From Bdellovibrionota bacterium (GTDB lineage Bacteria; Bdellovibrionota_C; UBA2361; CALJRW01), in NCBI GenBank assembly GCA_041740355.1, contig JBGSMD010000006.1:32001-96000 (forward strand): a DNA stretch of 64,000 nt. The letters run 5' to 3'. The notes under the pieces are model-generated. The model ran no database searches and was not told the origin of the DNA. It saw only the letters and a list, made by a program, of their open reading frames with translations. A program made the position numbers and the translations under genes. Shown here in pieces: positions 46,751 through 57,772 of the stretch (position 1 is its first letter; each line of letters opens with the position of its first letter).

Positions 46751-47134
46751 TTAATTTAGTTCAACGGCAACTAATAATTTTCTAACTTCGCTCAGTAATA
46801 TATCCGGTTTGCATGGTTTAACTAGGACGCTGTTACAACCAGCACTGATTGCTTCTTGATGAATCTCTTCTTCGTCCATTGCGGAAAATGCAATAATTGG
46901 ACATTTAACTCCCAGGGTTCTCAGTCGTTTTACTGTTTCAGTTCCTGATAATTTTGGCATCATCAGATCCATCACAATTAAATCGGGATGATCCTTGTTC
47001 TTTTCCAGCTCACTTATAGCTAGGAGTCCATTAATCGCCTGATCTACCTGAAAACCATCATTTTCAAATAGTATTTGAATTAGATCTAATTGAGATACGT
47101 TATCATCCACTAGTAAAATCCGTTTTCTTTTCAT
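46751..47134 (-). CDS. Single-domain response regulator (receiver)
   Basis: LLVDD, MDLMMP, KP motifs. Confidence 0.92.
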   Translation of the reverse strand: MKRKRILLVDDNVSQLDLIQILFENDGFQVDQAINGLLAISELEKNKDHPDLIVMDLMMPKLSGTETVKRLRTLGVKCPIIAFSAMDEEEIHQEAISAGCNSVLVKPCKPDILLSEVRKLLVAVELN

Positions 47135-47481: not shown

Positions 47482-48936
47482 ATGTTTGCTATAGATATTT
47501 TACCTTTAGTTGATTCCGAGCATCATTTGCCTGAAAGGTTTTTTCGTGGGCAACCATCTGTGATCATTGGCAGTGATCTTGAATGTCAGTTGCAACATCC
47601 CTTATTGAGAAATTTAAATTTTAACGTTTTAATTCAGAAGTTAGCTGGAAGTCAGTTTGAATGTCGCCAAATTTTTCATGAAAATTCTGATCGGGTTGGT
47701 TTTCAAGATATTTACGAATCTACTGCTAAGCTTAATCTTGGAACTGTCAAGATTCTGATAACAAGTATTGATGCTGATTTACTAGTCAAGGAGAACGAGG
47801 CTCCGGATCAAGCAGGCTATCGCTTGTTAAAACAGGCCGTCACTTCACAACTTACGACATTTCCCGCCTTAGAAATTAATAAACCATATAAAGCTGTAGT
47901 TTCTTTCAATCCCGATCAAGTACTAACTGTTGGTCGAGCGGATTATCATCATTTAGTGATTGAACAGTTCGATGTTTCTTCCGATCATGCCAGATTTGGC
48001 TTTGCAAATAATAAATATTGGGTTGAGGATTTAGGTTCTACCAATGGAACCTTTCTTAATAATCAACAAGTCTCTGGGAAGATATTTTTCGAACCGGGAG
48101 ACTCTGTTTTACTTGGAGCTAGCACAAAGATCACGGGATTGAAAAAAGTTGTTCAAAAAATAGTGGAGTCAGTGATTCCAGAACAAGTTTCAGTTAATAT
48201 CCCTCAAGAATCAGATCAATTACAGACCAACTCGTTACAAACATCTTATCCTGAGACTGAAGTGGAAGATCATCTTCCGACGGAAGAGCTTTCACTATCA
48301 CGGGTAGAAGAACTATTGGTCGATGTCCGTTATCCAGTATTGCTGGCTGTCAATAAGATTGCTCGTCCAGGGCGTTTAATTTTAAAGAAAGATCAAACTG
48401 TTTTAATTGGTCGTGATGCAAAATCAGATTTATGGCTAGGGGCACCCTATGTTTCTCGTGAGCATAATCAAATAACTTATTTAGGGGATGGTGAAATTCG
48501 AATTCAAGATCATAGTTCTAATGGTACTGCATATTCCGAAGGTATGATTCCGGCTGGCGGCGAATTACTTGTTAGTAATAAGTCTGAGATTTTACATTAT
48601 GGTTCTGGTTTAGCAGTTGCACTATGTTTTAACCAAGAAGACGAAGAAATATTTGTAGCTTCTGGTGGTCGTGCCGATGCTTTTATAGAAAATTTGCCAA
48701 CACCAATCAAGGAGCAAGTTTCTCCGCTGATGGCACCAAAGACTGCTACTTCCTCGAAAGAGAAGACATACCGTCCGTTACGTTCAAATGACGTTGTAAA
48801 AAATGGAGTAGTAGGAAAAATTCTTTATCGCTTCCTCAGTTTTGACATAAAAAGAAAGGTTTTCATTTGTTGTTTAAGCCTGCTAGTCATTGCGATATTT
48901 GTCTTATTAATATCAATAATCTTAACGTTTTTGTAA
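47482..48936 (+). CDS. Multi-FHA-domain protein with C-terminal membrane anchor
   Basis: One degenerate and two intact FHA domains (GR...SSDH...STNGT; GR...SREH...SSNGT); the protein ends in a hydrophobic helix. Confidence 0.85.
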   Translation: MFAIDILPLVDSEHHLPERFFRGQPSVIIGSDLECQLQHPLLRNLNFNVLIQKLAGSQFECRQIFHENSDRVGFQDIYESTAKLNLGTVKILITSIDADLLVKENEAPDQAGYRLLKQAVTSQLTTFPALEINKPYKAVVSFNPDQVLTVGRADYHHLVIEQFDVSSDHARFGFANNKYWVEDLGSTNGTFLNNQQVSGKIFFEPGDSVLLGASTKITGLKKVVQKIVESVIPEQVSVNIPQESDQLQTNSLQTSYPETEVEDHLPTEELSLSRVEELLVDVRYPVLLAVNKIARPGRLILKKDQTVLIGRDAKSDLWLGAPYVSREHNQITYLGDGEIRIQDHSSNGTAYSEGMIPAGGELLVSNKSEILHYGSGLAVALCFNQEDEEIFVASGGRADAFIENLPTPIKEQVSPLMAPKTATSSKEKTYRPLRSNDVVKNGVVGKILYRFLSFDIKRKVFICCLSLLVIAIFVLLISIILTFL

Positions 48937-48994
48937 TTTTTGTAATTTTTGTGATTTTTGGTGTTAATCGCACCTTTTGATGCAAAAATTCCAC

Positions 48995-49021
48995 TAAAGT
49001 TTCTAAATAGAGAGTCGATAT
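48995..49021 (+). promoter_or_regulatory. Putative sigma28 (FliA)-type promoter
   Basis: TAAAGTTT-N11-GTCGATAT versus consensus TAAAGTTT-N11-GCCGATAA. Confidence 0.65.
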
Positions 49022-49195
49022 TCTAAATAGCCAAACGATGTTAAGAGGCGTTTCATAATCTTTCCTAGTAAGGGTTAGTTATGATTAGCAATTGAAAAGA
49101 TAGATTTTTTGTCACCAATGAAAGTTTTTATTTTGCAGATTACTGCTGCAAAATTTACTTAGTGGCATTGTTAGCTTAATTTTATAATATTAAAT

Positions 49196-50263
49196 ATGTC
49201 AGCAGATAGTACAGAATTAACTTTTATTAGATGTTCATCATGTCGTAGCTTAGTGCCCGCAATGTCTACACGTTGTCGTATGTGTGGCGCAGATTTGCAA
49301 GCTAAGAAACCAACAGCTACTCCCGAGGCAACAGCCCCCAAGGAGAAAATTGAAGCAAAAGCACCAGCGATAGTTGCCAGCACGGAATTAGATCCCTTGA
49401 ATGAATTTTTAAGTGAAGAAGATCAATTCGATGATGTTGATATTGTTGATGATCAATTAGAAGCTTCAGATAAAGAATCTGATGAAGAATTCTCCGCTGG
49501 CAATCCTTCTGAATTTAGGGATGACTTTGAGGATGATTTTGATGAGGAACAAGCTATCAAAGAATTAGATAGTTTATTAGAAGAATTAAATGCGACTTCA
49601 GTTGCCACGGCAGTACCTATTCCAGTGGTTGCAACTCCTGTAGTACCAGTTGTAACTAAAGCAACAAAGTCTGAGCTGATTGATGTTTTAGAGCCAAAAG
49701 TTGTTCCGAAAAAAACCGAGACGAAAATCGAACCTGTCAAAGTTATGACTCCGGTTGCAGCTTCAGTAATTCCGCAAAATTTTAGTTCACCTGAACCAAA
49801 AATTCCAACAAAAGCTGAGATTAAAGAAGATATTATAAAAGAGGAGAATATTATGGAAAAAGAATTAAGAGCAGTGGAGAGTAAGGTAACTTCCATTAAG
49901 TCTGCTGGTATTAAACAACAACCTGATAAGCAAACAGCTTTATTCGGCTGGTTTGTTAGTTATCAAGAAGCGGTGGGCGTTTCTCGTGAAATTCGCGAAG
50001 GTAAATTTTTTGTTACCGCAAAAAGTTTAAAACCAAATGACCTAATTATCGAAGATGATAGTGTGTCTACGCCCCATGCGATGATTACAGTAAGTCATGA
50101 ACTTGGCTTTCAAATTCAAGATTTAATGAGTGAACATGGGTTGTATATAAAAAAACATGGATCTAAGAAGTATGAAGTGATTGATGATATTGAAGTTGTG
50201 GAGAATGGGGACTGGATTAGGTTCGGTAATATAGAATTCATGGTAGTAATAATGCCCGTCTAA
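49196..50263 (+). CDS. Zinc-ribbon / acidic linker / degenerate FHA protein
   Basis: CSSC...CRMC N-terminus, Asp/Glu-rich then Pro/Val/Lys-rich linker, C-terminal FHA-like domain (VSTPHA...DLMSEHG). Confidence 0.75.
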   Translation: MSADSTELTFIRCSSCRSLVPAMSTRCRMCGADLQAKKPTATPEATAPKEKIEAKAPAIVASTELDPLNEFLSEEDQFDDVDIVDDQLEASDKESDEEFSAGNPSEFRDDFEDDFDEEQAIKELDSLLEELNATSVATAVPIPVVATPVVPVVTKATKSELIDVLEPKVVPKKTETKIEPVKVMTPVAASVIPQNFSSPEPKIPTKAEIKEDIIKEENIMEKELRAVESKVTSIKSAGIKQQPDKQTALFGWFVSYQEAVGVSREIREGKFFVTAKSLKPNDLIIEDDSVSTPHAMITVSHELGFQIQDLMSEHGLYIKKHGSKKYEVIDDIEVVENGDWIRFGNIEFMVVIMPV

Positions 50264-50345
50264 AAAGTACAACCCAGCTTTTGGCGAATCTCGAATTTAA
50301 AACTAAGCTAAATTACTTCCCGCGGCGCCCTCTGGGCTTTGGGGG

Positions 50346-50378
50346 ACAAGCAGCTGTACTCCAAGTACAGCTGCTTGT
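50346..50378. terminator. Perfect 14-bp hairpin between the FHA gene and sctJ
   Basis: acaagcagctgtac-tccaa-gtacagctgcttgt followed by a short T-run. Confidence 0.5.
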
Positions 50379-50555
50379 TTACCTTAGTTTAAAATCCGAC
50401 CTTCACTCAAAATCTGAATGGTACGGAATGCACACCAAACTTCTTTATGATTATATGGAGATAATCTGATTTTAATAGCTATCAGTTAATAACCAAAAGT
50501 AGAGAGTTTCAAAATCAGTGTGCTTATGTAAGAATAGCGGTAAGCTTAAAATCAA

Positions 50556-51398
50556 ATGAAAATAATTAAACTTACTTTTTTACTATTAATTCTTCTTTTT
50601 ACTAGTAGCTGTCGTGACGTCCAAGTCGCTGAAAATATTAATCAGTACCAGGCACATCAAATTATCAATAAGTTAAACTCAGCGGGAATAGACTCCAAGT
50701 ATTTTGCCAGCAATAACGGCAAATCTTATTCAGTTTCCGTGACCCAAAGAAATTATTTACCAGCAGTGGGAATTATTGCTTCTTCCGGAATTTTACCCAA
50801 GGTTGATTCAGATTTTAAAGAATTAACCGAGCCTAAAGGGTTCTTATCAAGCAATAAATCTTTTGATTTATTAAGACTAGACCGTGCTATCGCTGTAGAG
50901 TTGGAAGATGCTCTGCTAGGAGTTCCAAGTATCACCAACGCAAAGGTTGTTGTCCGTTTAAATAGTTTACCTGAAAACCAAATGCCCTCTGTCTCGATTA
51001 TTGCTGGAACACGTGATCAACAAACTGATCTTAGTTACATTACAGATTTAGTAAAAAATGCTATTCCCGGAATCCAAGACGATCATATTAAGCTAATCAT
51101 AGAGCGACTACCTGAATCTGAAGCTGATTTTTCGCTGATTGGAACAACACAGGCTCAGGGGAAGTTGTTGGCTGTCCCCTTAGTTCCGTTTTTAATCTGG
51201 CAGGTCCCTGCCGGGGTTGAATTAGAATTAGCTTGGACGGCAATTATAATTCTGATTTTTGCATTACTAGTGGGTTATTTTTTTGCAACACTTTTTCGTA
51301 AGCCGAAGTCTCGCGAACGTAATTCACTAAGTTTGCCAGAGTCAAGCTCTTTAGCGATAGGATTACAAAAAGATTTGAATGAGGAGGATTTTCGATGA
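50556..51398 (+). CDS. sctJ: SctJ/YscJ/FliF-family inner-membrane ring lipoprotein
   Basis: Lipobox TSSC, QAHQIINKLNSAGI, ELEDAL..VPSITNAKV, PSVSII, LVKNAIPGI...IKL, C-terminal TM. Confidence 0.85.
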   Translation: MKIIKLTFLLLILLFTSSCRDVQVAENINQYQAHQIINKLNSAGIDSKYFASNNGKSYSVSVTQRNYLPAVGIIASSGILPKVDSDFKELTEPKGFLSSNKSFDLLRLDRAIAVELEDALLGVPSITNAKVVVRLNSLPENQMPSVSIIAGTRDQQTDLSYITDLVKNAIPGIQDDHIKLIIERLPESEADFSLIGTTQAQGKLLAVPLVPFLIWQVPAGVELELAWTAIIILIFALLVGYFFATLFRKPKSRERNSLSLPESSSLAIGLQKDLNEEDFR

Positions 51399-51640
51399 GC
51401 CCAGAGAATCAAGGAATGGTTTTCAATAAATTAGCTCCAGAGCAACAAGCTTTAGTCGCAATAGCTGTCTTGCTTGACGGTTTTGATAGTCCCTTTTTTT
51501 TAGGAGAGGATTTTAAGTTTGAGGATCAATTGCGGAAGGCCGCAGAAGAAATTGTAAAAGATGCTCCTGCGCAAAGGTTGCCATATGTGGCAACGTTACT
51601 GCGTCGAGCTTTAAATGAGTTAAGGAATCAAGATGAGTGA
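51395..51640 (+). CDS. Small T3SS-cluster protein (FliG-N/SctK-like position)
   Basis: Translationally coupled between sctJ and the sctQ-like gene; LAPEQQALVAIAVLLDG weakly resembles the FliG N-terminus. Confidence 0.5.
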   Translation: MSPENQGMVFNKLAPEQQALVAIAVLLDGFDSPFFLGEDFKFEDQLRKAAEEIVKDAPAQRLPYVATLLRRALNELRNQDE

Positions 51641-52628
51641 GAATTGGCAATTAGCTGACGAAATTGAAGAACTTGATCCCAAGATAATTAAATATGGAAT
51701 TGGTTTTCTAAAATCACGTCCCCAGAATTGGATTCCTAACTTCTCAACTTTTTGGACTCCATTACTAGATCTTTTAAATTTCGAGGTAGCAGTATTAGAT
51801 ATTCAGCCAACATTTGAATTCCCATTAAGTGGAAGTGGAGTTTGGTTAGGAGCCTTTGAAAATAATAAAATTGGAATTAGTTGTGAACCCTTTGTCGCTA
51901 AATATTTAGCTAGTCTTTTTATTACAGATATTGATGCGGAGACAAGTAAGATTTTAGAGGATTATCTTGCTAGACGATTAATGCGTTCGCTCGTTGCTTC
52001 CTGGACTGGGCCGTCACTAAGTAATTTTAAATATTTTGGTGCCAGTTCCATTAAAGATTTCGATCCAAGTGCTGGTATTAAAATTACAATGTCGATAAAC
52101 GGTAGGCAAGTAACGCTTTGGTTATTAATTGAAGAGCTTTTACTCAAAAAATTGGATAATTTGTGGAGAAGGCAAACCACAACATTTAATATTAAAAAAT
52201 TAGAGGCTAGAAAATACCAATTAATTCTATTTACACAGCAAATCCAACTAGACGATTTAGAGTCATTATTGGTAATAGGAAATAAGATTTACCTTACTGG
52301 CTTGGATCCTAAGTATTTAGCAATGCGGGATGTGATTAATGACTCCACCTGGAAAGTTAAGCTTTACAGTAGCACCGATCAATTAGTAATGAAGATTCTT
52401 GAATCAAACGTTGCATATCAATTAGATCTAAGAGATTTATTAATGCGGGTGACGTTGCCTGAAATTACATTAAGTACTGAACAGCTACAGTTAAATAGTA
52501 GCGAATCATTCTTGCCTACTGGCTTAGCCCTGGGAACAGAGCTTATGATTAAGGTTTCTGATGAAACTGTGGCCCAGGCTAAGTTAGGCAAAGATACAAA
52601 CGGTTACTATGCTGAAATTCTAAACTAG
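51633..52628 (+). CDS. Putative SctQ/FliM-like sorting-platform protein
   Basis: Position before sctR; C-terminal region resembles SPOA repeats (IQLDDLESLLVIG, IKVSDETVAQAKLG). Confidence 0.55.
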   Translation: MSENWQLADEIEELDPKIIKYGIGFLKSRPQNWIPNFSTFWTPLLDLLNFEVAVLDIQPTFEFPLSGSGVWLGAFENNKIGISCEPFVAKYLASLFITDIDAETSKILEDYLARRLMRSLVASWTGPSLSNFKYFGASSIKDFDPSAGIKITMSINGRQVTLWLLIEELLLKKLDNLWRRQTTTFNIKKLEARKYQLILFTQQIQLDDLESLLVIGNKIYLTGLDPKYLAMRDVINDSTWKVKLYSSTDQLVMKILESNVAYQLDLRDLLMRVTLPEITLSTEQLQLNSSESFLPTGLALGTELMIKVSDETVAQAKLGKDTNGYYAEILN

Positions 52629-52698
52629 CTATCTTTATCAGGCGTTAGTTGAAAATTCCCCCTAGAATGCTTGAGGTAACTCAGTTATACTCCACAGC

Positions 52699-53271
52699 AT
52701 GTTAGAATTAGTGTTTATTATGTTGGTGTCCAGTGCTTTTATTAAGCTTGTAACGACACTCAGTATTTTTCAGTACGGATTAGGGCTTAAGAATTTTTCC
52801 TTTAGCATTATAGTTTTTCTATTTAGTCTAGTTTTAACCCTTTTTGTAATGCAACCTACCTGGGATAATTTGGGAGGTTGGCAAGGAGTAAGTAAAGCTA
52901 CCCCCGAACAAGTTGTTATCTTTCAAAGTCAAATTGATCCATTTGTTACTAAGCATAGTGATCCTGAAACGCTTGCAAAGTTACAAGCAATCTATCAAAA
53001 AAATCAGCCTGAAGTTTCAGTGACAGTTATTCCTTGGTCAGTAAAGATTACGGCCTTTATGATTACGGAACTAAAAGAAGCTTTTTATATTGGACTTTTA
53101 TTAATCATACCTTTTATTTTCCTAGATTTACTGACAGTTAATATTTTAATGGCGCTGGGAATTACTCAAATTTCAGCTTTAACTGTAGCACTACCCTTCA
53201 AATTGTTAATTTTTTATCTTTTCGATGGGTGGCAGTTATTAACTGAGAAATTGCTAAGCTTTTACAATTAA
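52699..53271 (+). CDS. sctR: SctR/FliP-family export-gate protein (divergent)
   Basis: SAFIKLVTTLSI, LTLFVMQP, AFMITELKEAF.IG...PFIFLDL...NILMALG...LPFKLLIFYLFDGW. Confidence 0.9.
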   Translation: MLELVFIMLVSSAFIKLVTTLSIFQYGLGLKNFSFSIIVFLFSLVLTLFVMQPTWDNLGGWQGVSKATPEQVVIFQSQIDPFVTKHSDPETLAKLQAIYQKNQPEVSVTVIPWSVKITAFMITELKEAFYIGLLLIIPFIFLDLLTVNILMALGITQISALTVALPFKLLIFYLFDGWQLLTEKLLSFYN

Positions 53272-53276
53272 ATAAA

Positions 53277-53525
53277 ATGACTCCAGACTTATTAATTGAA
53301 TCATTAATTTATGCTGTACGTATTTTTTTATTGGTAACAATTCCACTTTTAGCCATCTTGACCTTGGCTGGTACTATTTCAGGAATGCTCCAAGCAATAA
53401 CAGGGATACGGGAAAGTTTACTGAATTATTTGACTAAGCTAATTGCCTTGTTTGCTGTGTTTTATTTCTTTTTGCCAAGCTTCTTACAAACTTTGGAAGA
53501 AATGTTTAATAACTACTACTTATGA
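53277..53525 (+). CDS. sctS: SctS/FliQ-family export-gate protein (divergent)
   Basis: 82 aa, P...G...GMLQAITGIRE..L.Y..K; follows sctR. Confidence 0.82.
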   Translation: MTPDLLIESLIYAVRIFLLVTIPLLAILTLAGTISGMLQAITGIRESLLNYLTKLIALFAVFYFFLPSFLQTLEEMFNNYYL

Positions 53526-54097
53526 CACCATTAGTACTTAGTGGAGTAATAGTTTACTGTTGGGGACGGATTGGTTTTCTCTTGGGGTTAATATTTCTAA
53601 TTAGCTTACTTATTTATTTTACAGGCGAGCTGGGACTTTCGATCACACCTTTAGAAAGGCTCTTGTTAGTATCTTCCGTAATGAGCCTTCCGCTCAGTTT
53701 TTATTTAGCTGGTTCATATCTAGATAATTATTTAGCGGATAAATTTTCTTTCCAGTTACCTTTCGCGCTGGTGTTTCTTTTGTCTGGTAGTTATCTTTTA
53801 TTAGAGCAAGGACTTTTAATAGATCAACTTGACCATACATTAAATTTAATTAATGCCGCAGCTGATAATTCCTTCTTAATGATTCTGTTCGAAATAATTA
53901 GTAAGATAATTATGACAACCACAGGCCTAATGCTAATTGTTTTATTAATCGCGCTAATTTTTATTGTGCCACTTGCTTGGCTGATGAAAAATTCTCAATT
54001 GAATTTTAGTTGGAGTATCCCCAGTCTTAATTTCATATTGATATTATTTTTTTTAGCATCCGGCTACCAGTTAATTTTATCTAAATTATTATCCTAA
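53522..54097 (+). CDS. SctT/FliR-like polytopic membrane protein (short, divergent)
   Basis: Very hydrophobic, located between sctS and the sctU-like gene; AGSYLD and C-terminal QLN...SIP patterns. Confidence 0.6.
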   Translation: MTPLVLSGVIVYCWGRIGFLLGLIFLISLLIYFTGELGLSITPLERLLLVSSVMSLPLSFYLAGSYLDNYLADKFSFQLPFALVFLLSGSYLLLEQGLLIDQLDHTLNLINAAADNSFLMILFEIISKIIMTTTGLMLIVLLIALIFIVPLAWLMKNSQLNFSWSIPSLNFILILFFLASGYQLILSKLLS

Positions 54098-54772
54098 ATG
54101 GCTTTTAGCTTTCTAAATAACAGGCAGCTGCAAGACCTTCGTCGGCAAGGAATTTTCCAATATTCTTCTTGGACTAGTCGGCTTATTGTCTTAGTCAGTC
54201 TCTCTGGTTATTTTTATTTTTCTGGGGATAAGTTAATTCCTATGCTATTAAGTTTTTATCAAAATCTTTTCTCAATTCATGATTTAAACTTAATGGTAGT
54301 GGGGCAATTTTGGAGTAAGCTGTTATTTGATTTTATATTCATCCCAACATTACTTTTAATACTGTCAATTTTAATTGGGGGGTTATTACAGACTAAGTTT
54401 TATTTAAGATTTAATAGTCTGGCATTTGACTTGGGGCAACTTGGATTAAAGGCACAGTTGCAAAAAATTAAGCCAATTAAACGAATTTTATTTGGGCTAG
54501 CATTTCCGATACTATTTTTTATTCTATTAATGTTAACAATAAGTTGGGTAAAAAATCTACTTATTGCTTTTTCCTGGGCGCAGGAGGAATCTCTCGTTCA
54601 GTACTTATCTCTCTTCAAATCAATTGCTAGTCAAATTGCCATCGTTGCTGTATTATTAATATTCTTAGCAACGATCCTCAACTGGTTCTATTTCCGGCTT
54701 GAACATCGAAATATTGATCATGATTTGGCAGAAGATTCTGCCAATCAGAGTGCTATTGATAGTATTAGATAA
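54098..54772 (+). CDS. SctU/FlhB-like membrane domain only
   Basis: LQDLRRQG...S N-terminus, four TMs, GGLLQTKF; ends before the NPTH domain. Confidence 0.7.
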   Translation: MAFSFLNNRQLQDLRRQGIFQYSSWTSRLIVLVSLSGYFYFSGDKLIPMLLSFYQNLFSIHDLNLMVVGQFWSKLLFDFIFIPTLLLILSILIGGLLQTKFYLRFNSLAFDLGQLGLKAQLQKIKPIKRILFGLAFPILFFILLMLTISWVKNLLIAFSWAQEESLVQYLSLFKSIASQIAIVAVLLIFLATILNWFYFRLEHRNIDHDLAEDSANQSAIDSIR

Positions 54773-55014
54773 TGCCATACCCAAAAAAAGACTTAATATC
54801 GCATGCTCCTTTATTCTTGTTATTACCAGAACGTCGCTCTTTGGATGGCTTTGAGAAGTATCTGTCTGCTTTTTATTTAAGGCTGGAAAAACTTAAACAG
54901 TTAGAGCAAGAAGGGGATCAGTTATCAAGCGAAGATTTATCTGAACTAACAATGCTACGGCAAGTCGTCGATTGGCTTACACTCCATTCAGAAATTGAAA
55001 GTAATAGGAATTAA
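54772..55014 (+). CDS. Small hypothetical protein (SctX-like position)
   Basis: Coupled to the sctU-like gene and upstream of the TPR protein. Confidence 0.55.
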   Translation: MPYPKKDLISHAPLFLLLPERRSLDGFEKYLSAFYLRLEKLKQLEQEGDQLSSEDLSELTMLRQVVDWLTLHSEIESNRN

Positions 55015-55019
55015 TAAAA

Positions 55020-55439
55020 ATGAGTTTATTAGATGCTAAGTCCAGTAGTTATTCCGAGGAAGAGTTGGACTTGCTTTACTCTTTGGGTCTTTTTTATTTA
55101 GAAGCGGGACATTATCGTTCGGCAGAAATGATCTTTCAGGGCTTAACCGCAGTAGCCCCCAGTTTTGCTGATAGTTGGTTAGCAGCTTCAGCTACATTCT
55201 TTATGTTAGGTAATTTTGATCAAGCTAAACGCCATGCGCATCAAGCAATGCGTCTAAATCCCCATGATATTCAAGTACAATTACTTTATGTGACAATCTT
55301 ATTGTCTCAAGGTGAATTATCTGAGGCAGGAACTTTACTTGGTGAAATTAAAGAGCAGATTGATACTCGGGTGATTCAGAATCCCGATCAGATACGTTAT
55401 TTTAAAGCACAGTTAGCAAGATTCGAATTTGGTCAGTAA
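55020..55439 (+). CDS. TPR protein, SctY/SycD(LcrH)-like T3SS chaperone
   Basis: LYSLGLFYLEAGHYRSAEMIFQGL..P, two to three TPRs, 139 aa. Confidence 0.75.
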   Translation: MSLLDAKSSSYSEEELDLLYSLGLFYLEAGHYRSAEMIFQGLTAVAPSFADSWLAASATFFMLGNFDQAKRHAHQAMRLNPHDIQVQLLYVTILLSQGELSEAGTLLGEIKEQIDTRVIQNPDQIRYFKAQLARFEFGQ

Positions 55440-55499
55440 GCATTTAGACTTTGGCAGATCTCAAAAGAAAAAACTATAAATATTTACGTAGGTCAGTAG

Positions 55500-55850
55500 T
55501 TACAACTTTTCTTTGTCATCATCTTCATCATTGTCACCCGAGTCAACTAATGCTGCATCGATAGTTTGCTTTACAGCTAATTCAATTGCCTCGCGTTGAG
55601 CTTGAGGTATTTTTGAGTTAGAAAAAAGCTTTTCAGCTTCTTGCTCTACCATTTGTAATAATTCGCTACGTTCTTGGAAAGACATTTCCCTCGTAGGCAT
55701 TCGACTAGTGCTAGAGACGCCAGTAATTGCTCCAACTTTAGAAGTTTTATTAACCTGAGAAATTGCTTCGGATTTACGTACCGAATTTAAGGCATCAGTT
55801 TTATTAATACCCTTAATTTTTTTATCATTTGAATCAACACCATCAACCAT
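55500..55850 (-). CDS. Small hypothetical protein downstream of a sigma factor
   Basis: Disordered N-terminal half, helical C-terminal half; 28 nt after the sigma gene. Confidence 0.65.
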   Translation of the reverse strand: MVDGVDSNDKKIKGINKTDALNSVRKSEAISQVNKTSKVGAITGVSSTSRMPTREMSFQERSELLQMVEQEAEKLFSNSKIPQAQREAIELAVKQTIDAALVDSGDNDEDDDKEKL

Positions 55851-55878
55851 TTTATTCTCCGTTCATTTAGAAATCTAT

Positions 55879-56664
55879 TTAGTACTGTCCTGAAAATTCT
55901 GAAACTTTTTTTGTAAATATTCCAAAATCTTCTTGATTTGCTAAGACCATATTGGCATCTTTTAGTCCTGGCCTAATACGCGGGCAATCTAATTCTTTAC
56001 CTGTAGAAACACTTTTTTGTAGATACTCCATGATGACTTTGTGTTCTCGAATTACATTTAACTCATCGGTATTCCATTCCGTTGCAACACCACGAAGCGA
56101 TAGTCCTTCCCAGTAGACCTTCCAGACTAGTAATTGATGCAGAGGTTGTAGATCGGAGAGATTGATGATCAATTGTTTAAACTCAGTTGCTTCTTCCGGA
56201 TTGGAATCTTGAATTCCATGTTTAGTAGATATTAAACAGGCACTAATTAACAACTGTTGAATTCCAACGCGGACACCTTGTTCCGAATCATCATCACTCG
56301 GCAAAACACCTGATCTAATTTGAGGATATAATTCAAATAACTCAGCAGAAATTGCGCGGGCTAATCTTTCTGTGCGTTTAGAATTGCGACTATCTTTTTC
56401 CCAAGATTTACTATTACGGGCAGCTTCAGTAGATGCTTCATGAATTCTGCGGCGGGCATAACTCTTAAATGGCACACCTAAATTAGGATCAAATCTGCGA
56501 GCACAAAAAATTAATGCTTCAAAAGCAGCTCCATCTAGTCCATCATCTTGCCAATGTAAACTCCATCCCCGAGCAACCGATTTGGCAATTTTCTCTGCCC
56601 AAATTTGGTGTTCAAGTACTAACTCATTGGCTTCATCCATGCTTAAAATCGTTGTTTCGGTCAT
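55879..56664 (-). CDS. Divergent FliA/WhiG-like sigma-70 factor
   Basis: Region 2 ARRFDPNLGVPFKSYARRRI; region 4 VYWEGLSLRGVA. Confidence 0.78.
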   Translation of the reverse strand: MTETTILSMDEANELVLEHQIWAEKIAKSVARGWSLHWQDDGLDGAAFEALIFCARRFDPNLGVPFKSYARRRIHEASTEAARNSKSWEKDSRNSKRTERLARAISAELFELYPQIRSGVLPSDDDSEQGVRVGIQQLLISACLISTKHGIQDSNPEEATEFKQLIINLSDLQPLHQLLVWKVYWEGLSLRGVATEWNTDELNVIREHKVIMEYLQKSVSTGKELDCPRIRPGLKDANMVLANQEDFGIFTKKVSEFSGQY

Positions 56665-56986
56665 CTTAAGTATTTTACATTAAAAATTTAGAATTCGCCA
56701 TAAGTTTATAGAAGCAGTTCCCTAAGAATCCACGACAATTACTTATGTGCAATGCACTAATCGCAGACTGGCTATTCAAATCTTGGCTAAATCCCAAGTT
56801 TGAGTTCCTAAAAACAATAAGCTTAGTAAACCCAAGGGAAATTCCTGAAATGTTCTTCAGAAATTATTTTTGAATTTACTATAAATTTTAAGCTGTTCAA
56901 ATTTAATCGAAGTGATTTTTGAACCAGCCGTGGATTCCAAAAGTTAATGTTGCTATACATTTCCTTTTGGAGTCCACTCATAAGGG

Positions 56987-57772
56987 ATGTTTGTTATGAG
57001 TAATAGTCGTTCAGAAGAAGCTAAAACTAAAGCTAAAATATATGATTTCGCAAAAATAGTTGAGCGTAAGGAATCAATTGCGACCCACCTAAGTATCCAT
57101 GAAAAGAATGGTTTAATCATGAAAAACAGAATTCAGGGCCGTAAATTAGCCTGTAGCATGCTAAGAAAATGGAACTGTCGACTAGATTTAGAAGAAGTTG
57201 ATAGTATCGTAGACTTATCTCTCTGCGAAGCAGTAAAGTATTTTGACCCGGCCAAAGGAGTGAATTTTCTAACTTTCCTTTTCTATCATTTACGTGGAAA
57301 TTTAATTCGTACAATTAAAATCCAAGCGAATCAAACTGCTATTCCTTTAGAGTTTACCGATGAGAATATGGAAAGTGGCTATATCGGTCATGAAAGAATT
57401 AATACTGCTGATGCTTTTGAAACTTTTGGAACTGTCCAGAAGTCTCCCGACCAGCAATTACAAGAAGGCCAATTTTTCGAATTAACAAAACTTGCTTGTG
57501 AAAAATTAACGGATCTGGAGCGAGAAATTATCAAAAATGTTTTTATTCATGAGGAGCAGGTAACCCAACTTGCACAAGATTTAAATTATAGTCGCTGTCA
57601 TATTTCCAGATTAAAAACAGCTACGATTAATAAATTAAGATCAGAGATCGAAAAAATTACAGGCGAGAAAATTTCTGTATCGGAAGGAGTAGATAGTCCT
57701 CGTCGAGCACTAGATGTTAGACATCGAGTTCGTGTGCACAAGGTTAGGAAGGTAAAAAAGATAGCTGCTTAA
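56987..57772 (+). CDS. Divergent FliA/SigB-like sigma-70 factor
   Basis: Region 2 LCEAVKYFDPAKGVNFLTF...LRG; region 4 LTDLEREII...LAQDLNYSRCHISRL. Confidence 0.82.
   Translation: MFVMSNSRSEEAKTKAKIYDFAKIVERKESIATHLSIHEKNGLIMKNRIQGRKLACSMLRKWNCRLDLEEVDSIVDLSLCEAVKYFDPAKGVNFLTFLFYHLRGNLIRTIKIQANQTAIPLEFTDENMESGYIGHERINTADAFETFGTVQKSPDQQLQEGQFFELTKLACEKLTDLEREIIKNVFIHEEQVTQLAQDLNYSRCHISRLKTATINKLRSEIEKITGEKISVSEGVDSPRRALDVRHRVRVHKVRKVKKIAA

Follow-up and report, generated by a model that had tools for sequence, protein, structure and literature searches.

A tightly packed gene set at positions 47482-57772 of the window, the whole 64,000-nucleotide stretch of Bdellovibrionota DNA analysed here, raises the question of what a type III secretion (T3SS)-like export gate serves in a locus that holds no gene for SctV, SctN, a secretin, rod or flagellin. 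A preliminary description had claimed both this absence, which is upheld by profile searches, and a T3SS-like gene set combined with FHA and sigma genes, which is confirmed by profile matches for FHA, SctJ, SctR, SctS and SctU; every listed gene is an open frame at its given position. The genes that it named are present, while o116 and a neighbouring response regulator gene were missed. The locus runs in the following order, preceded by that neighbour:

46751-47134, minus strand: single-domain response regulator, divergent from FHA1 (Response_reg, 91.3 bits)
47482-48936, plus strand: FHA1, with two FHA stretches (FHA, 87.3 bits; Yop-YscD_cpl, 49 bits)
49196-50263, plus strand: FHA2 (FHA, 27.7 bits)
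50556-51398, plus strand: SctJ, inner-membrane ring lipoprotein type (YscJ_FliF, 38 bits, above cut-off)
51395-51640, plus strand: o81, a conserved protein of 81 aa between SctJ and SctQ
51633-52628, plus strand: o331, SctQ/FliM-like cytoplasmic platform protein of 331 aa, by predicted fold
52699-53271, plus strand: SctR (FliP family), export-gate subunit (FliP, 123.9 bits)
53277-53525, plus strand: SctS (FliQ family), export-gate subunit (Bac_export_3, 40.9 bits)
53522-54097, plus strand: probable SctT (FliR family), very divergent, by position between SctS and SctU, size and four hydrophobic segments
54098-54772, plus strand: SctU/FlhB, membrane domain only (Bac_export_2, 41.8 bits, profile positions 10-205 of 335)
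54772-55014, plus strand: o80, small protein, predicted helical hairpin with a less ordered N-terminus
55020-55439, plus strand: TPR protein (TPR_19, 47.2 bits), resembling type III secretion chaperones
55500-55850, minus strand: o116, 116 aa, between the TPR and sigma 1 genes, directly downstream of sigma 1 and co-directional with it
55879-56664, minus strand: sigma 1, divergent sigma-70-like (Sigma70_r2, 17.2 bits; TIGR02937, 37.8 bits; both under cut-offs)
56987-57772, plus strand: sigma 2, sigma-70 family, group-3 type (Sigma70_r4, 27.8 bits; TIGR02937, 57 bits; both over cut-offs)

Junctions within the locus, from SctJ to the TPR gene, are overlaps or gaps of 0-8 bases, with the exception of a 70-base gap before SctR. 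The response regulator gene adjoins FHA1 in 11 of 20 relatives' loci and is a conserved part of the neighbourhood. A 62-aa frame at 50281-50469 was rejected as a locus gene, having no counterpart in 100 related loci.

SctJ carries an N-terminal signal with Cys19 and is hydrophobic at residues 1-19 and again at 229-247, the second stretch being a C-terminal membrane segment; it scores 61.7 bits with the SctJ equivalog TIGR02544, below the cut-off of 161.95. SctR is under every NCBIfam cut-off. The window's SctT copy gives no profile match, Bac_export_1 included, and hhalign finds no match between it and the other SctT of the genome; its positional orthologues match Bac_export_1 in 4 cases out of 31 (best E, 3.4e-8). 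The product is termed a probable SctT from its position, size and membrane segments only. SctU lacks the C-terminal autocleavage/switch domain. Its truncation, already recognized in the preliminary description, is borne out by the partial Bac_export_2 coverage and by positional orthologues of 173-261 aa in 31 of 33 relatives; just two Bac_export_2 matches occur in the whole genome, each confined to the N-terminal part.

The label "SctQ-like" for o331 agrees with its predicted fold. This protein has no Pfam or NCBIfam match, and its AlphaFold2 model (pLDDT 85.4) retrieves by Foldseek Salmonella FliM (8umd_C; E 8e-8, probability 1.0), a FliM(SPOA)::FliN fusion at TMt 0.70 and, at TMt 0.62, the middle domain of FliM. 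Every neighbour found with a language model is an SctQ, SepQ or FliM cluster. It is predicted to be an SctQ/FliM-like protein composed of a CheC/FliM-middle-like domain followed by SpoA-like C-terminal domains. The adjacent o81, with no family match in Pfam or NCBIfam, has orthologues in 41 of 100 related loci at an identical position each time (pN 0.09 vs pS 0.63). Further downstream, o80 is present in 62 of 100 related loci and is modelled with helices at residues 27-46 and 53-79 (pLDDT 77.7); its fold search returns nothing at E <= 0.001. The best specific NCBIfam matches of the TPR protein are SctY (37.8 bits) and LcrH/SycD (37 bits), both below cut-off, and o80 could be an SctX-like partner of this protein or a substrate for export.

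A gate without ATPase, switch domain or needle, in which SctT and SctU evolve fast (pN 0.31-0.32 in a comparison with G001, a genome of the same genus, and 3-4 times the rate of neighbouring genes), might be what is left of a flagellar or injectisome cluster in decay. All frames are intact, however, and in the same comparison 12 of 14 genes show pN of 0.03-0.15 and pS of 0.63-0.85. Gene order and content are maintained across at least 36 families of a class of uncultured Bdellovibrionota-labelled MAGs, the short SctU is common to nearly all relatives, as noted above, and both gene sets described below are retained in a family that lost the flagellum. The genes are under purifying selection and kept class-wide, unlike the relaxed selection and patchy loss that the preliminary description had named as marks of decay, and a relic is scarcely credible. 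The FHA1 family occurs in 117 of 124 genomes of the phylum (72 of the 73 of high quality) and the o331 family in 59 of 61 genomes sampled from the class, and the order FHA2-SctJ-o81-o331-SctR is retained in 15 of 20 relatives' loci. This lineage is known here solely from MAG records.

In a tree with flagellar and injectisome references, the window's SctR falls in a clade of its own (13 of 13 rows, SH-aLRT 99) outside 10 flagellar and 3 injectisome sequences. The two SctV paralogues of the genome also group separately, each in a clade of its own that lies outside the injectisome clades sampled. The proposal of a separate minimal system holds as regards a separate branch among the sampled references, but the system is not stand-alone: SctV1 lies in a Tad operon elsewhere, and a second paralogous set exists. 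In the window's genome, which is 97.3% complete, there are two FHIPEP (SctV) genes, two FliP genes, a second SctRSTU set and a second SctJ. The locus is on contig C6, Tad-SctV1 on C30, SctV2 with SctJ2 and a sigma gene on C20, and the second SctRSTU on C64. Of the parts missing from the locus, SctV was thus found twice; a whole-genome search gave no match over the FliI/YscN cut-off for an SctN/FliI ATPase and none for FliH, flagellin or rod genes. Five weaker FliI/YscN matches were rejected as SctN, being two F1 alpha/beta pairs and Rho. The two secretins of the genome were rejected as an outer pore of the gate; one is a PilQ-type orphan and the other a GspD adjoining GspE, so that both belong to other systems and no dedicated secretin accompanies the locus.

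SctV1 takes ninth place in a Tad (Kil-like) pilus operon and lies at the operon end. Genes for a PP2C phosphatase, an FHA protein and a Ser/Thr kinase stand at the head of this operon, and a membrane pseudokinase comes after SctV1. The order TadA-TadB-TadC-SctV1 was found in all 10 relatives fetched, the PP2C-FHA-kinase genes upstream of it in 7 of 10, and the pseudokinase after SctV1 in 9 of 10, the tenth locus stopping at a contig end. No secretin or pilin gene lies within the stretch examined, and the operon's ATPase has no N-terminal FHA domain, unlike KilF. In the relative G003, the Tad operon and the locus are joined into a single co-directional cluster, its 21 genes running from PP2C to TPR on one strand over ~23 kb, with o116 and sigma 1 alongside and with SctV1 directly upstream of FHA1. 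FHA1 and SctV1 also share one short stretch in another relative, G023. This union in G003 suggests that an uncultured bacterial lineage has a hybrid envelope machine. The locus is best explained, with a probability of roughly 0.6, as the inner-membrane core of a non-flagellar T3SS-derived machine, forming one half of a two-part system with the Tad-SctV1 operon.

SctV1 rather than SctV2 is assigned to the window's set because of the G003 arrangement, of the FHA2 paralogue in the Tad operon (30% identity over 179 residues) and by elimination. It is improbable that the window's set pairs instead with SctV2, leaving SctV1 to serve the second SctRSTU set on C64. Such a pairing is suggested by G040 (locus L055), where a divergent sigma-SctJ2-96aa-SctV2-TPR cluster adjoins an SctR-to-TPR-sigma module, an arrangement that counts against the SctV1 assignment; both clusters moreover include a small protein and a TPR protein, recalling the Yersinia order yscX-yscY-lcrD. 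The window and C20 each own an SctJ, however, and therefore two full sets result only as C20 with C64 and the window with SctV1; the proximity of SctV1 and FHA1 in G003 and G023 also argues against SctV2.

In the two-part system, the SctJ ring, the SctR-S-T gate with a switch-less SctU, the SctQ/FliM-like platform, the tail-anchored double-FHA scaffold, the small helical protein with its TPR chaperone and the sigma/anti-sigma module would be provided by the locus, and the missing gate ring by SctV1 of the Tad operon. Proton-motive force acting through SctV, with no ATPase, would power the gate, which may move small substrates across the inner membrane only. FHA1 is cytoplasmic and has two canonical FHA domains, one C-terminal membrane segment (residues 462-480, a tail anchor) and no periplasmic domain. 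Both FHA domains retain GR...SxxH...NG, residues that do not vary among 13 members of the family; FHA1 is possibly a phospho-Thr-dependent scaffold or an SctD-derived anchor. By sequence inspection, FHA2 has an N-terminal CxxC...CxxC zinc ribbon, a long acidic/low-complexity linker and a degenerate C-terminal FHA domain. The phospho-Thr input proposed earlier is in keeping with the motifs of FHA1 and with the kinase and phosphatase heading the partner operon, and threonine phosphorylation, recognised by FHA1, may activate the gate. Pseudomonas type VI secretion likewise combines an envelope machine with genes for a membrane Ser/Thr kinase, a PP2C phosphatase and an FHA scaffold (PpkA, PppA, Fha1), although that machine is a different one and a tail anchor is present here in the kinase, the phosphatase and FHA1 alike. 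The analogy to type VI threonine phosphorylation has been drawn for Kil (PMC8460266).

Among known systems, the Myxococcus Kil pilus with its needle-less T3SS* comes closest. The two are described as co-localised and functionally interdependent (PMC12075869), and Kil loci as rich in FHA proteins (PMC8460266); by analogy, the gate here may cooperate with the Tad pilus. The T3SS* of Myxococcus xanthus corresponds to mxan_2434-2464, and "Myxo" long and short non-flagellar T3SS loci have been distinguished (Abby and Rocha 2012, PMC3459982). Shared features are a non-flagellar core reported to be without secretin, needle, tip and translocon (PMC3459982, PMC12075869), two paralogous loci per genome (PMC3459982), and a tie to a Tad-like pilus with FHA proteins, described as functional there and seen here in the gene arrangement, in a lineage with predatory relatives. 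Unlike T3SS*, the window's genome has neither SctN nor FliH/SctL, its SctU has no C-terminal domain, the place of SctD is taken by a tail-anchored double-FHA protein that has no periplasmic part, and SctV is inside the Tad operon, at whose head are a kinase and a phosphatase. Injectisomes (Ysc, Inv-Mxi-Spa, Hrp, Rhizobiales) share homologues of SctJ, SctQ, SctR, SctS, probably SctT, the membrane part of SctU, and SctV, and the TPR protein beside a small protein recalls the chaperone-substrate pair SctY/SctX. They differ in that SctN, SctC, needle, gatekeeper and translocon are absent here, scores stay under the curated equivalog cut-offs, and SctR and SctV lie outside the sampled injectisome clades.

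Core gate genes alone, without ATPase or needle, might also form a structural platform instead of a secretion channel, for example a flagellar-core-dependent nanotube platform or a "hat-like" inner-membrane complex, since non-secretory roles of the flagellar core have been described (PMC9380563; PMC6456723). This is very improbable: the known examples are tied to flagellar cores and are reported as not seen in Myxococcus, whose only T3SS is non-flagellar (PMC9380563), flagellar genes were not found in the window's genome, and the SctQ-like, TPR chaperone-like and small hairpin proteins fit substrate handling.

The sigma factors had been called FliA-like, a likeness that is weak, with FliA_WhiG scores of 30-33 bits (sigma 2, 33) where the cut-off is 189.6; a search for a shared promoter motif gave none. 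A sigma circuit proper to the locus, as proposed, is suggested by the trio o116-sigma 1-sigma 2, which is conserved among the 100 related loci compared, and o116 itself is found in 88 of them. In the o116 model the N-terminal half has low confidence and the C-terminal half is helical, and 0 of 49 members match FlgM or another family. The predicted complex of sigma 1 with o116 scores 0.80 (three runs: 0.80, 0.85 and 0.75), a value obtained with custom alignments that may reflect likeness to solved sigma/anti-sigma pairs; controls gave 0.00 as the best of three. Among 80 solved complexes, 58 came up to the mark of the sigma 1-o116 pair, as did 2 of 110 mismatched pairs. The runs have at least 48% of contacts in common, with a partner pLDDT of at least 53. 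o116 is predicted to be the probable anti-sigma factor of sigma 1. Taken together, every element of the first inference is supported at the genomic level.

The model support for the sigma 1-o116 complex is also consistent with the gate being an independent inner-membrane export or signalling device, which shares regulation (kinase, phosphatase, FHA) and sometimes neighbourhood with the Tad pilus, has no mechanical link to it, and has as its main task the export of the anti-sigma factor or of a few periplasmic proteins. The sigma trio travels with the SctR-to-TPR module, and in the window's genome and most relatives the two halves are separated, by lying on different contigs or at a great distance. 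This reading is unlikely, though to be taken seriously, as SctV1 is internal to the Tad operon in all ten relatives, which goes beyond shared regulation, and the halves are a single co-directional cluster in G003. In the two-part machine, o116 would hold sigma 1 and may leave via the gate like FlgM in flagella, coupling activity to transcription. As in the flagellar FliA-FlgM pair, a group-3-like sigma gene and a small co-transcribed partner adjoin a type III export gate, and the helical C-terminal half of the partner is predicted to wrap the sigma factor; the case differs in that FlgM is not matched in sequence, FliA/WhiG is matched weakly and the flagellum is absent, and export of the partner would be presumed. 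Sigma 1 is the most conserved gene of the locus, with 96% identity to G001 and 49-57% across the order.

Twelve co-directional open frames occupy window positions 47482-57772 up to a divergent minus-strand pair, which is followed by a single plus-strand frame; the two sigma-like genes at this 3' end lie on opposite strands (sigma 1 minus, sigma 2 plus). The export genes named in the preliminary description are borne out by Pfam, in which SctJ (38 bits), SctR (FliP, 123.9 bits) and SctS (40.9 bits) match above the cut-offs, and SctU is truncated as described there: its match of 41.8 bits covers only profile positions 10-205 of 335, and the C-terminal autocleaving switch domain is absent. No further Bac_export_2 piece is found in the genome besides a second SctU copy, which is also short. 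All four proteins fall under every curated NCBIfam equivalog cut-off; for SctJ and SctU the non-flagellar model gives the higher score, for SctS the flagellar FliQ model does, and for SctR the two kinds of model score similarly. Pfam also recognises the TPR protein, whose best specific NCBIfam matches are the type III secretion (T3SS) chaperones SctY and LcrH/SycD (37-38 bits, under the cut-offs). No Pfam or NCBIfam family is found for two small proteins, o81 (81 aa) and o80 (80 aa), or for o331 (331 aa) and o191 (191 aa), which occupy the SctQ and SctT positions. A 62-aa frame in the spacer between FHA2 and SctJ (50281-50469) has a counterpart in 0 of 100 related loci and is probably not a gene. 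In several relatives (e.g. L056 8396-8773, G030), o81 and the SctQ-like gene are separated by an additional frame of about 115-125 aa, which is absent from the window's genome, G016 and G003.

The SctQ-like identity claimed for o331 holds, with all support for a SpoA domain coming from the predicted fold and from language-model neighbours. An AlphaFold2 model built from a 36-member family alignment (pLDDT 85.4, pTM 0.74) is matched by Foldseek to full-length Salmonella FliM in the C-ring (E 8e-8, probability 1.0), to a FliM(SPOA)::FliN fusion (TMt 0.70) and to FliM middle domains (TMt 0.62), and CheC and CheX are also among the matches. The language-model neighbours all belong to SctQ, SepQ or FliM clusters, and Pfam FliMN_C has no match in the whole genome. 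Because of these fold matches and neighbours, o331 is, on its predicted structure, a SctQ/FliM-type platform protein that sequence models miss. The case of o191, which has four hydrophobic segments, is weaker. The FliR/SctT model (Bac_export_1) matches 4 of 31 positional orthologues but not the window's copy, and comparison of the SctT-position family with the other SctT of the genome by hhalign gives no match (probability 0.15%), so that o191 is called here a probable SctT. The predicted model of o80 is a helical hairpin behind a poorly ordered N-terminus, and its fold search returns no match at E <= 0.001. A likeness of o80 to YscX is without evidence, the YscV:YscX:YscY complex appearing only at rank 40 with E 5.1.

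Compared with the same-genus genome G001, synonymous sites of the 14 locus genes are saturated (pS 0.63-0.85), and pN is 0.03-0.15 in 12 of them and 0.31-0.32 in SctT and SctU. The order FHA2-SctJ-o81-o331-SctR is kept in the loci of 15 of 20 relatives, confirming the synteny of the locus; in the others it is cut at a contig end or split into two modules. The short SctU is common to relatives (173-261 aa in 31 of 33 distinct orthologues), the FHA1 family is present in 117 of 124 sampled genomes of the phylum (72 of 73 high-quality ones), and the o331 family in 59 of 61 genomes sampled from the class. Decay of the locus, named in the preliminary description as a refuting outcome, is made very unlikely by pN lying far under pS, by the shared SctU length and by this spread of the families through phylum and class. 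SctT and SctU (53522-54772) are 53% and 50% identical to their G001 orthologues, against 78-96% for the flanking genes; they accumulate non-synonymous changes 3-4 times as fast as the neighbouring genes, and their frames are intact in all relatives.

The yardstick for a non-flagellar T3SS is a set of nine core genes, sctC, J, N, Q, R, S, T, U and V (Abby and Rocha, 2012). Several of these, as well as flagellar genes, were described as missing from the locus, and across the window's genome (assembly 97.3% complete) this is true of SctN, of a dedicated secretin and of flagellar genes, but not of SctV. Absent at the locus, SctV is encoded by two FHIPEP genes elsewhere (527.7 and 451.6 bits; 524.7 bits with the hrcV model, under its equivalog cut-off of 692). 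The best genome-wide score for the SctN ATPase is 244.6 bits on the FliI/YscN models against a cut-off of 379.5, and the five matches under the cut-off are an F1 alpha/beta pair, an 'alternate' F1 alpha/beta pair and Rho. The genome has two F-type ATPase operons (contigs C64 and C26, L009-L012), one of the 'alternate F1F0' type (beta 870.7, alpha 885 bits). FliH/SctL has no match in the genome, and SctQ is the only sorting-platform part found. The two secretins of the genome are a PilQ-type orphan and a GspD beside GspE in a type II secretion locus, and none is a dedicated SctC for the locus studied here. The needle model PF09392 has no match, although it is silent in the control genomes as well.

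The export gate is duplicated. A second SctR-S-T-U set (set B, the window's being set A) lies on C64, and a cluster on contig C20 has a second SctJ with a sigma factor, a 96-aa protein, one of the two gate ring genes (SctV2) and a TPR protein. The C64 set (L008 5366-12200) is preceded by three unnamed proteins of 126, 96 and 257 aa, the last in the would-be SctQ position, and a 1021-aa GAF/PAS histidine kinase lies downstream. SctV2 (L007 9727-11568) is about 80 residues shorter than usual, a length of 605-644 aa being common to 11 relatives, and it matches FHIPEP in two pieces (positions 3-302 and 461-656), so that part of its cytoplasmic domain is missing or replaced. In relatives from other families, FliP and FHIPEP each occur as three paralogues, of which one is flagellar; in the window's family the flagellar paralogue has been lost and the other two kept.

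The SctV/FlhA tree (38 sequences; IQ-TREE quick search, LG+G4) has four clades whose branching order is not resolved: the other gate ring protein, SctV1 (11 rows, SH-aLRT 100), SctV2 (12 rows, 100), six injectisome-type plasmid references (97) and nine flagellar sequences (99). The 37 sequences of the SctR/FliP tree are likewise separated into set A (13 rows, 99), set B (11 rows, 93), injectisome references (three, 94) and flagellar sequences (ten, 96). The flagellar clades of both trees hold the relatives' true FliP and FlhA. SctR of set A, SctV1 and SctV2 thus stand in clades of their own outside the sampled ordinary ones, as the preliminary description had suspected, the references being proteobacterial and actinobacterial plasmid sequences and the lineage's paralogues, without Myxococcales and Chlamydiales. 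This position, together with the absence of any match to flagellin and rod models in the genome, sets the system apart from a flagellar T3SS.

On contig C30, SctV1 (693 aa) is counted as ninth in an operon that encodes a Tad pilus machine; it stands tenth when every frame is listed.

Genes of the C30 operon in order
Gene 1: PP2C phosphatase, tail-anchored
Gene 2: FHA protein, paralogue of FHA2
Gene 3: 78-aa frame
Gene 4: Ser/Thr kinase (Pkinase 181.5 bits), tail-anchored
Genes 5 and 6: TadZ-like protein; RcpC/CpaB
Genes 7, 8 and 9: TadA; TadB; TadC
Gene 10: SctV1
Gene 11: 798-aa membrane protein with a degenerate kinase domain (L006 12381-14777)

The run TadA-TadB-TadC-SctV1 is found in 10 of 10 relatives' loci examined, the pseudokinase follows SctV1 in 9 of them (the tenth ends with its contig), and the phosphatase-FHA-kinase head is present in 7. 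The pseudokinase has one membrane segment, at about residues 310-328, and its C-terminal half of some 470 aa is helical; the protein may be a transmembrane sensor. A second TadA-like ATPase outside this operon (C46, about 95323-95916; T2SSE 106.8 bits) hints at another Tad-type system.

In G003, a genome from another family of the order, the Tad-SctV1 operon continues directly and co-directionally into FHA1-FHA2-SctJ-o81-SctQ-SctR-S-T-U-o80-TPR in a cluster of about 23 kb, with o116 (a 116-aa candidate anti-sigma) and sigma 1 alongside. Judged by gene order, of which this cluster is the strongest evidence, the window's locus and the Tad-SctV1 operon appear to be two halves of one system. Since the window has its own SctJ and C20 has another with SctV2, two full sets can be assembled only by joining the window to SctV1 and C64 to C20. 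The G003 arrangement favours the former pairing, whereas the main result against it comes from G040, where a C20-type cluster adjoins an SctR-to-TPR module.

A far-reaching reading, with a probability of about 0.3, is that of a hybrid nanomachine in which an ATPase-less, T3SS-derived gate is integral to a Tad pilus, is switched by a tail-anchored kinase, a phosphatase and FHA proteins, delivers cargo onto or beside the pilus, and exports its own anti-sigma factor so that firing reprogrammes transcription; such a machine would date back to the ancestor of an entire class of uncultured Bdellovibrionota. In the most likely working scheme, an envelope signal would reach the tail-anchored kinase and phosphatase, perhaps via the membrane pseudokinase, and the resulting phosphothreonine marks would be read at the membrane by FHA1. 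FHA1 matches the general Pfam FHA model at 87.3 bits in two stretches (FHA2 at 27.7 bits), and GR, SxxH and NG, which we take to be the phosphothreonine-binding set, are invariant in both of its FHA domains across 13 family members. It might instead be a plain SctD, a reading that was considered in view of its match to the YscD-type model, although at 49 bits this lies below the general FHA match, and the protein, whose one hydrophobic segment lies at the very C-terminus, is without a periplasmic part. As a phosphothreonine reader, FHA1 would recruit or free the SctQ platform at the SctJ/SctRSTU/SctV1 gate, which would move small substrates over the inner membrane. Because no ATPase exists, the proton-motive force would be the drive; flagellar export can run without FliI. 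The missing switch domain of SctU points to substrates of one class. In place of the needle and secretin that are lacking, the system may use the Tad machine encoded together with SctV1, as has been proposed for Myxococcus (PMC12075869).

In the Myxococcus loci (T3SS/T3SS*), the ATPase, SctJ and the inner rod are retained, together with SctD in the long locus, and secretin, needle, tip and translocon are absent (PMC3459982). By the definition in that paper, the present system is similar in keeping the export apparatus and SctJ with no dedicated secretin, but differs in lacking SctN and FliH/SctL and in having SctQ alone of the sorting platform. Kil loci encode many FHA proteins, and an FHA domain is also part of KilF (PMC8460266). 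The C30 operon resembles a Kil-type Tad pilus in its TadA, TadB, TadC, RcpC/CpaB and TadZ-like protein and in its several FHA proteins. Unlike KilF, its 505-aa ATPase has no FHA match at E <= 0.01, and unlike Kil with its short secretin KilC, this genome has no third secretin. The logic is that of Myxococcus Kil/T3SS*, in a smaller and differently wired form. Co-occurrence of a Tad pilus with a needle-less T3SS is described as restricted to one myxobacterial suborder (PMC12428579, a 2025 review), and their connection has so far been known from genetics and microscopy in Myxococcus only. Here it is visible in gene order: in all relatives examined SctV belongs to the Tad operon, and one genome unites everything in a single cluster. 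This opens an independent comparative route to the way in which the two machines are joined. If the hybrid machine is real, it would be either independent of the Myxococcus Kil/T3SS* pair or its evolutionary source. Judging from gene content, a gate with no ATPase and no SctU switch domain would be a smaller working type III export core than any studied, which bears on the origin of injectisomes from flagella. No prior description was found in the literature searched on T3SS in Bdellovibrionota/Oligoflexia and on SctV-Tad in Bdellovibrio, mostly at the level of listings and abstracts; supplementary tables may list such genes.

The regulatory module at the 3' end would supply a simple, testable read-out through its predicted sigma/anti-sigma pair. 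Sigma 2 scores above the Sigma70_r4 cut-off and sigma 1 under the Pfam and NCBIfam cut-offs; their description as FliA-like is weak, since FliA_WhiG has a cut-off of 189.6 and the two proteins score 30.6 and 33 bits. The trio o116-sigma 1-sigma 2 occurs in 86-90 of 100 related loci. Among the 80 sigma-anchored loci, 45 have it within reach of the TPR end of the T3SS operon, and many of the remainder are short contigs. The predicted complex of sigma 1 with o116 scores 0.80 (runs 0.80, 0.85 and 0.75; best control 0.00), a mark that was attained in 58 of 80 solved complexes and in 2 of 110 mismatched pairs, although custom alignments make this calibration rough and solved sigma/anti-sigma pairs may have raised the score. 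The runs have at least 48% of contacts in common, with a partner pLDDT of at least 53. In the model, residues 54-104 of o116 touch several stretches of sigma 1 and the first half is unplaced, an arrangement that resembles FlgM on FliA. No FlgM or other consistent Pfam family is found among 49 o116 family members, and the protein atlas gives no lead for o116. The module thus differs from a FliA/FlgM pair in both partners' family scores, with binding predicted from the model. According to the proposed scheme, o116 would be exported through the gate.

Among 16 regions upstream of operons for T3SS, Tad and sigma genes, no convincing shared promoter or operator motif emerges. The 8-mer CTGTTCAA is found upstream of FHA1 and between the sigma genes, but is rejected as an operator with 153 copies in the genome, as is a shared 10-mer that is not conserved in G001. 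The spacer between sigma 1 and sigma 2 (56665-56986) has a 112-base insertion in its middle in the window's copy relative to G001, and contains long blocks identical to G001 despite the saturated synonymous sites; promoters, operators or leader elements may account for the conservation of these blocks.
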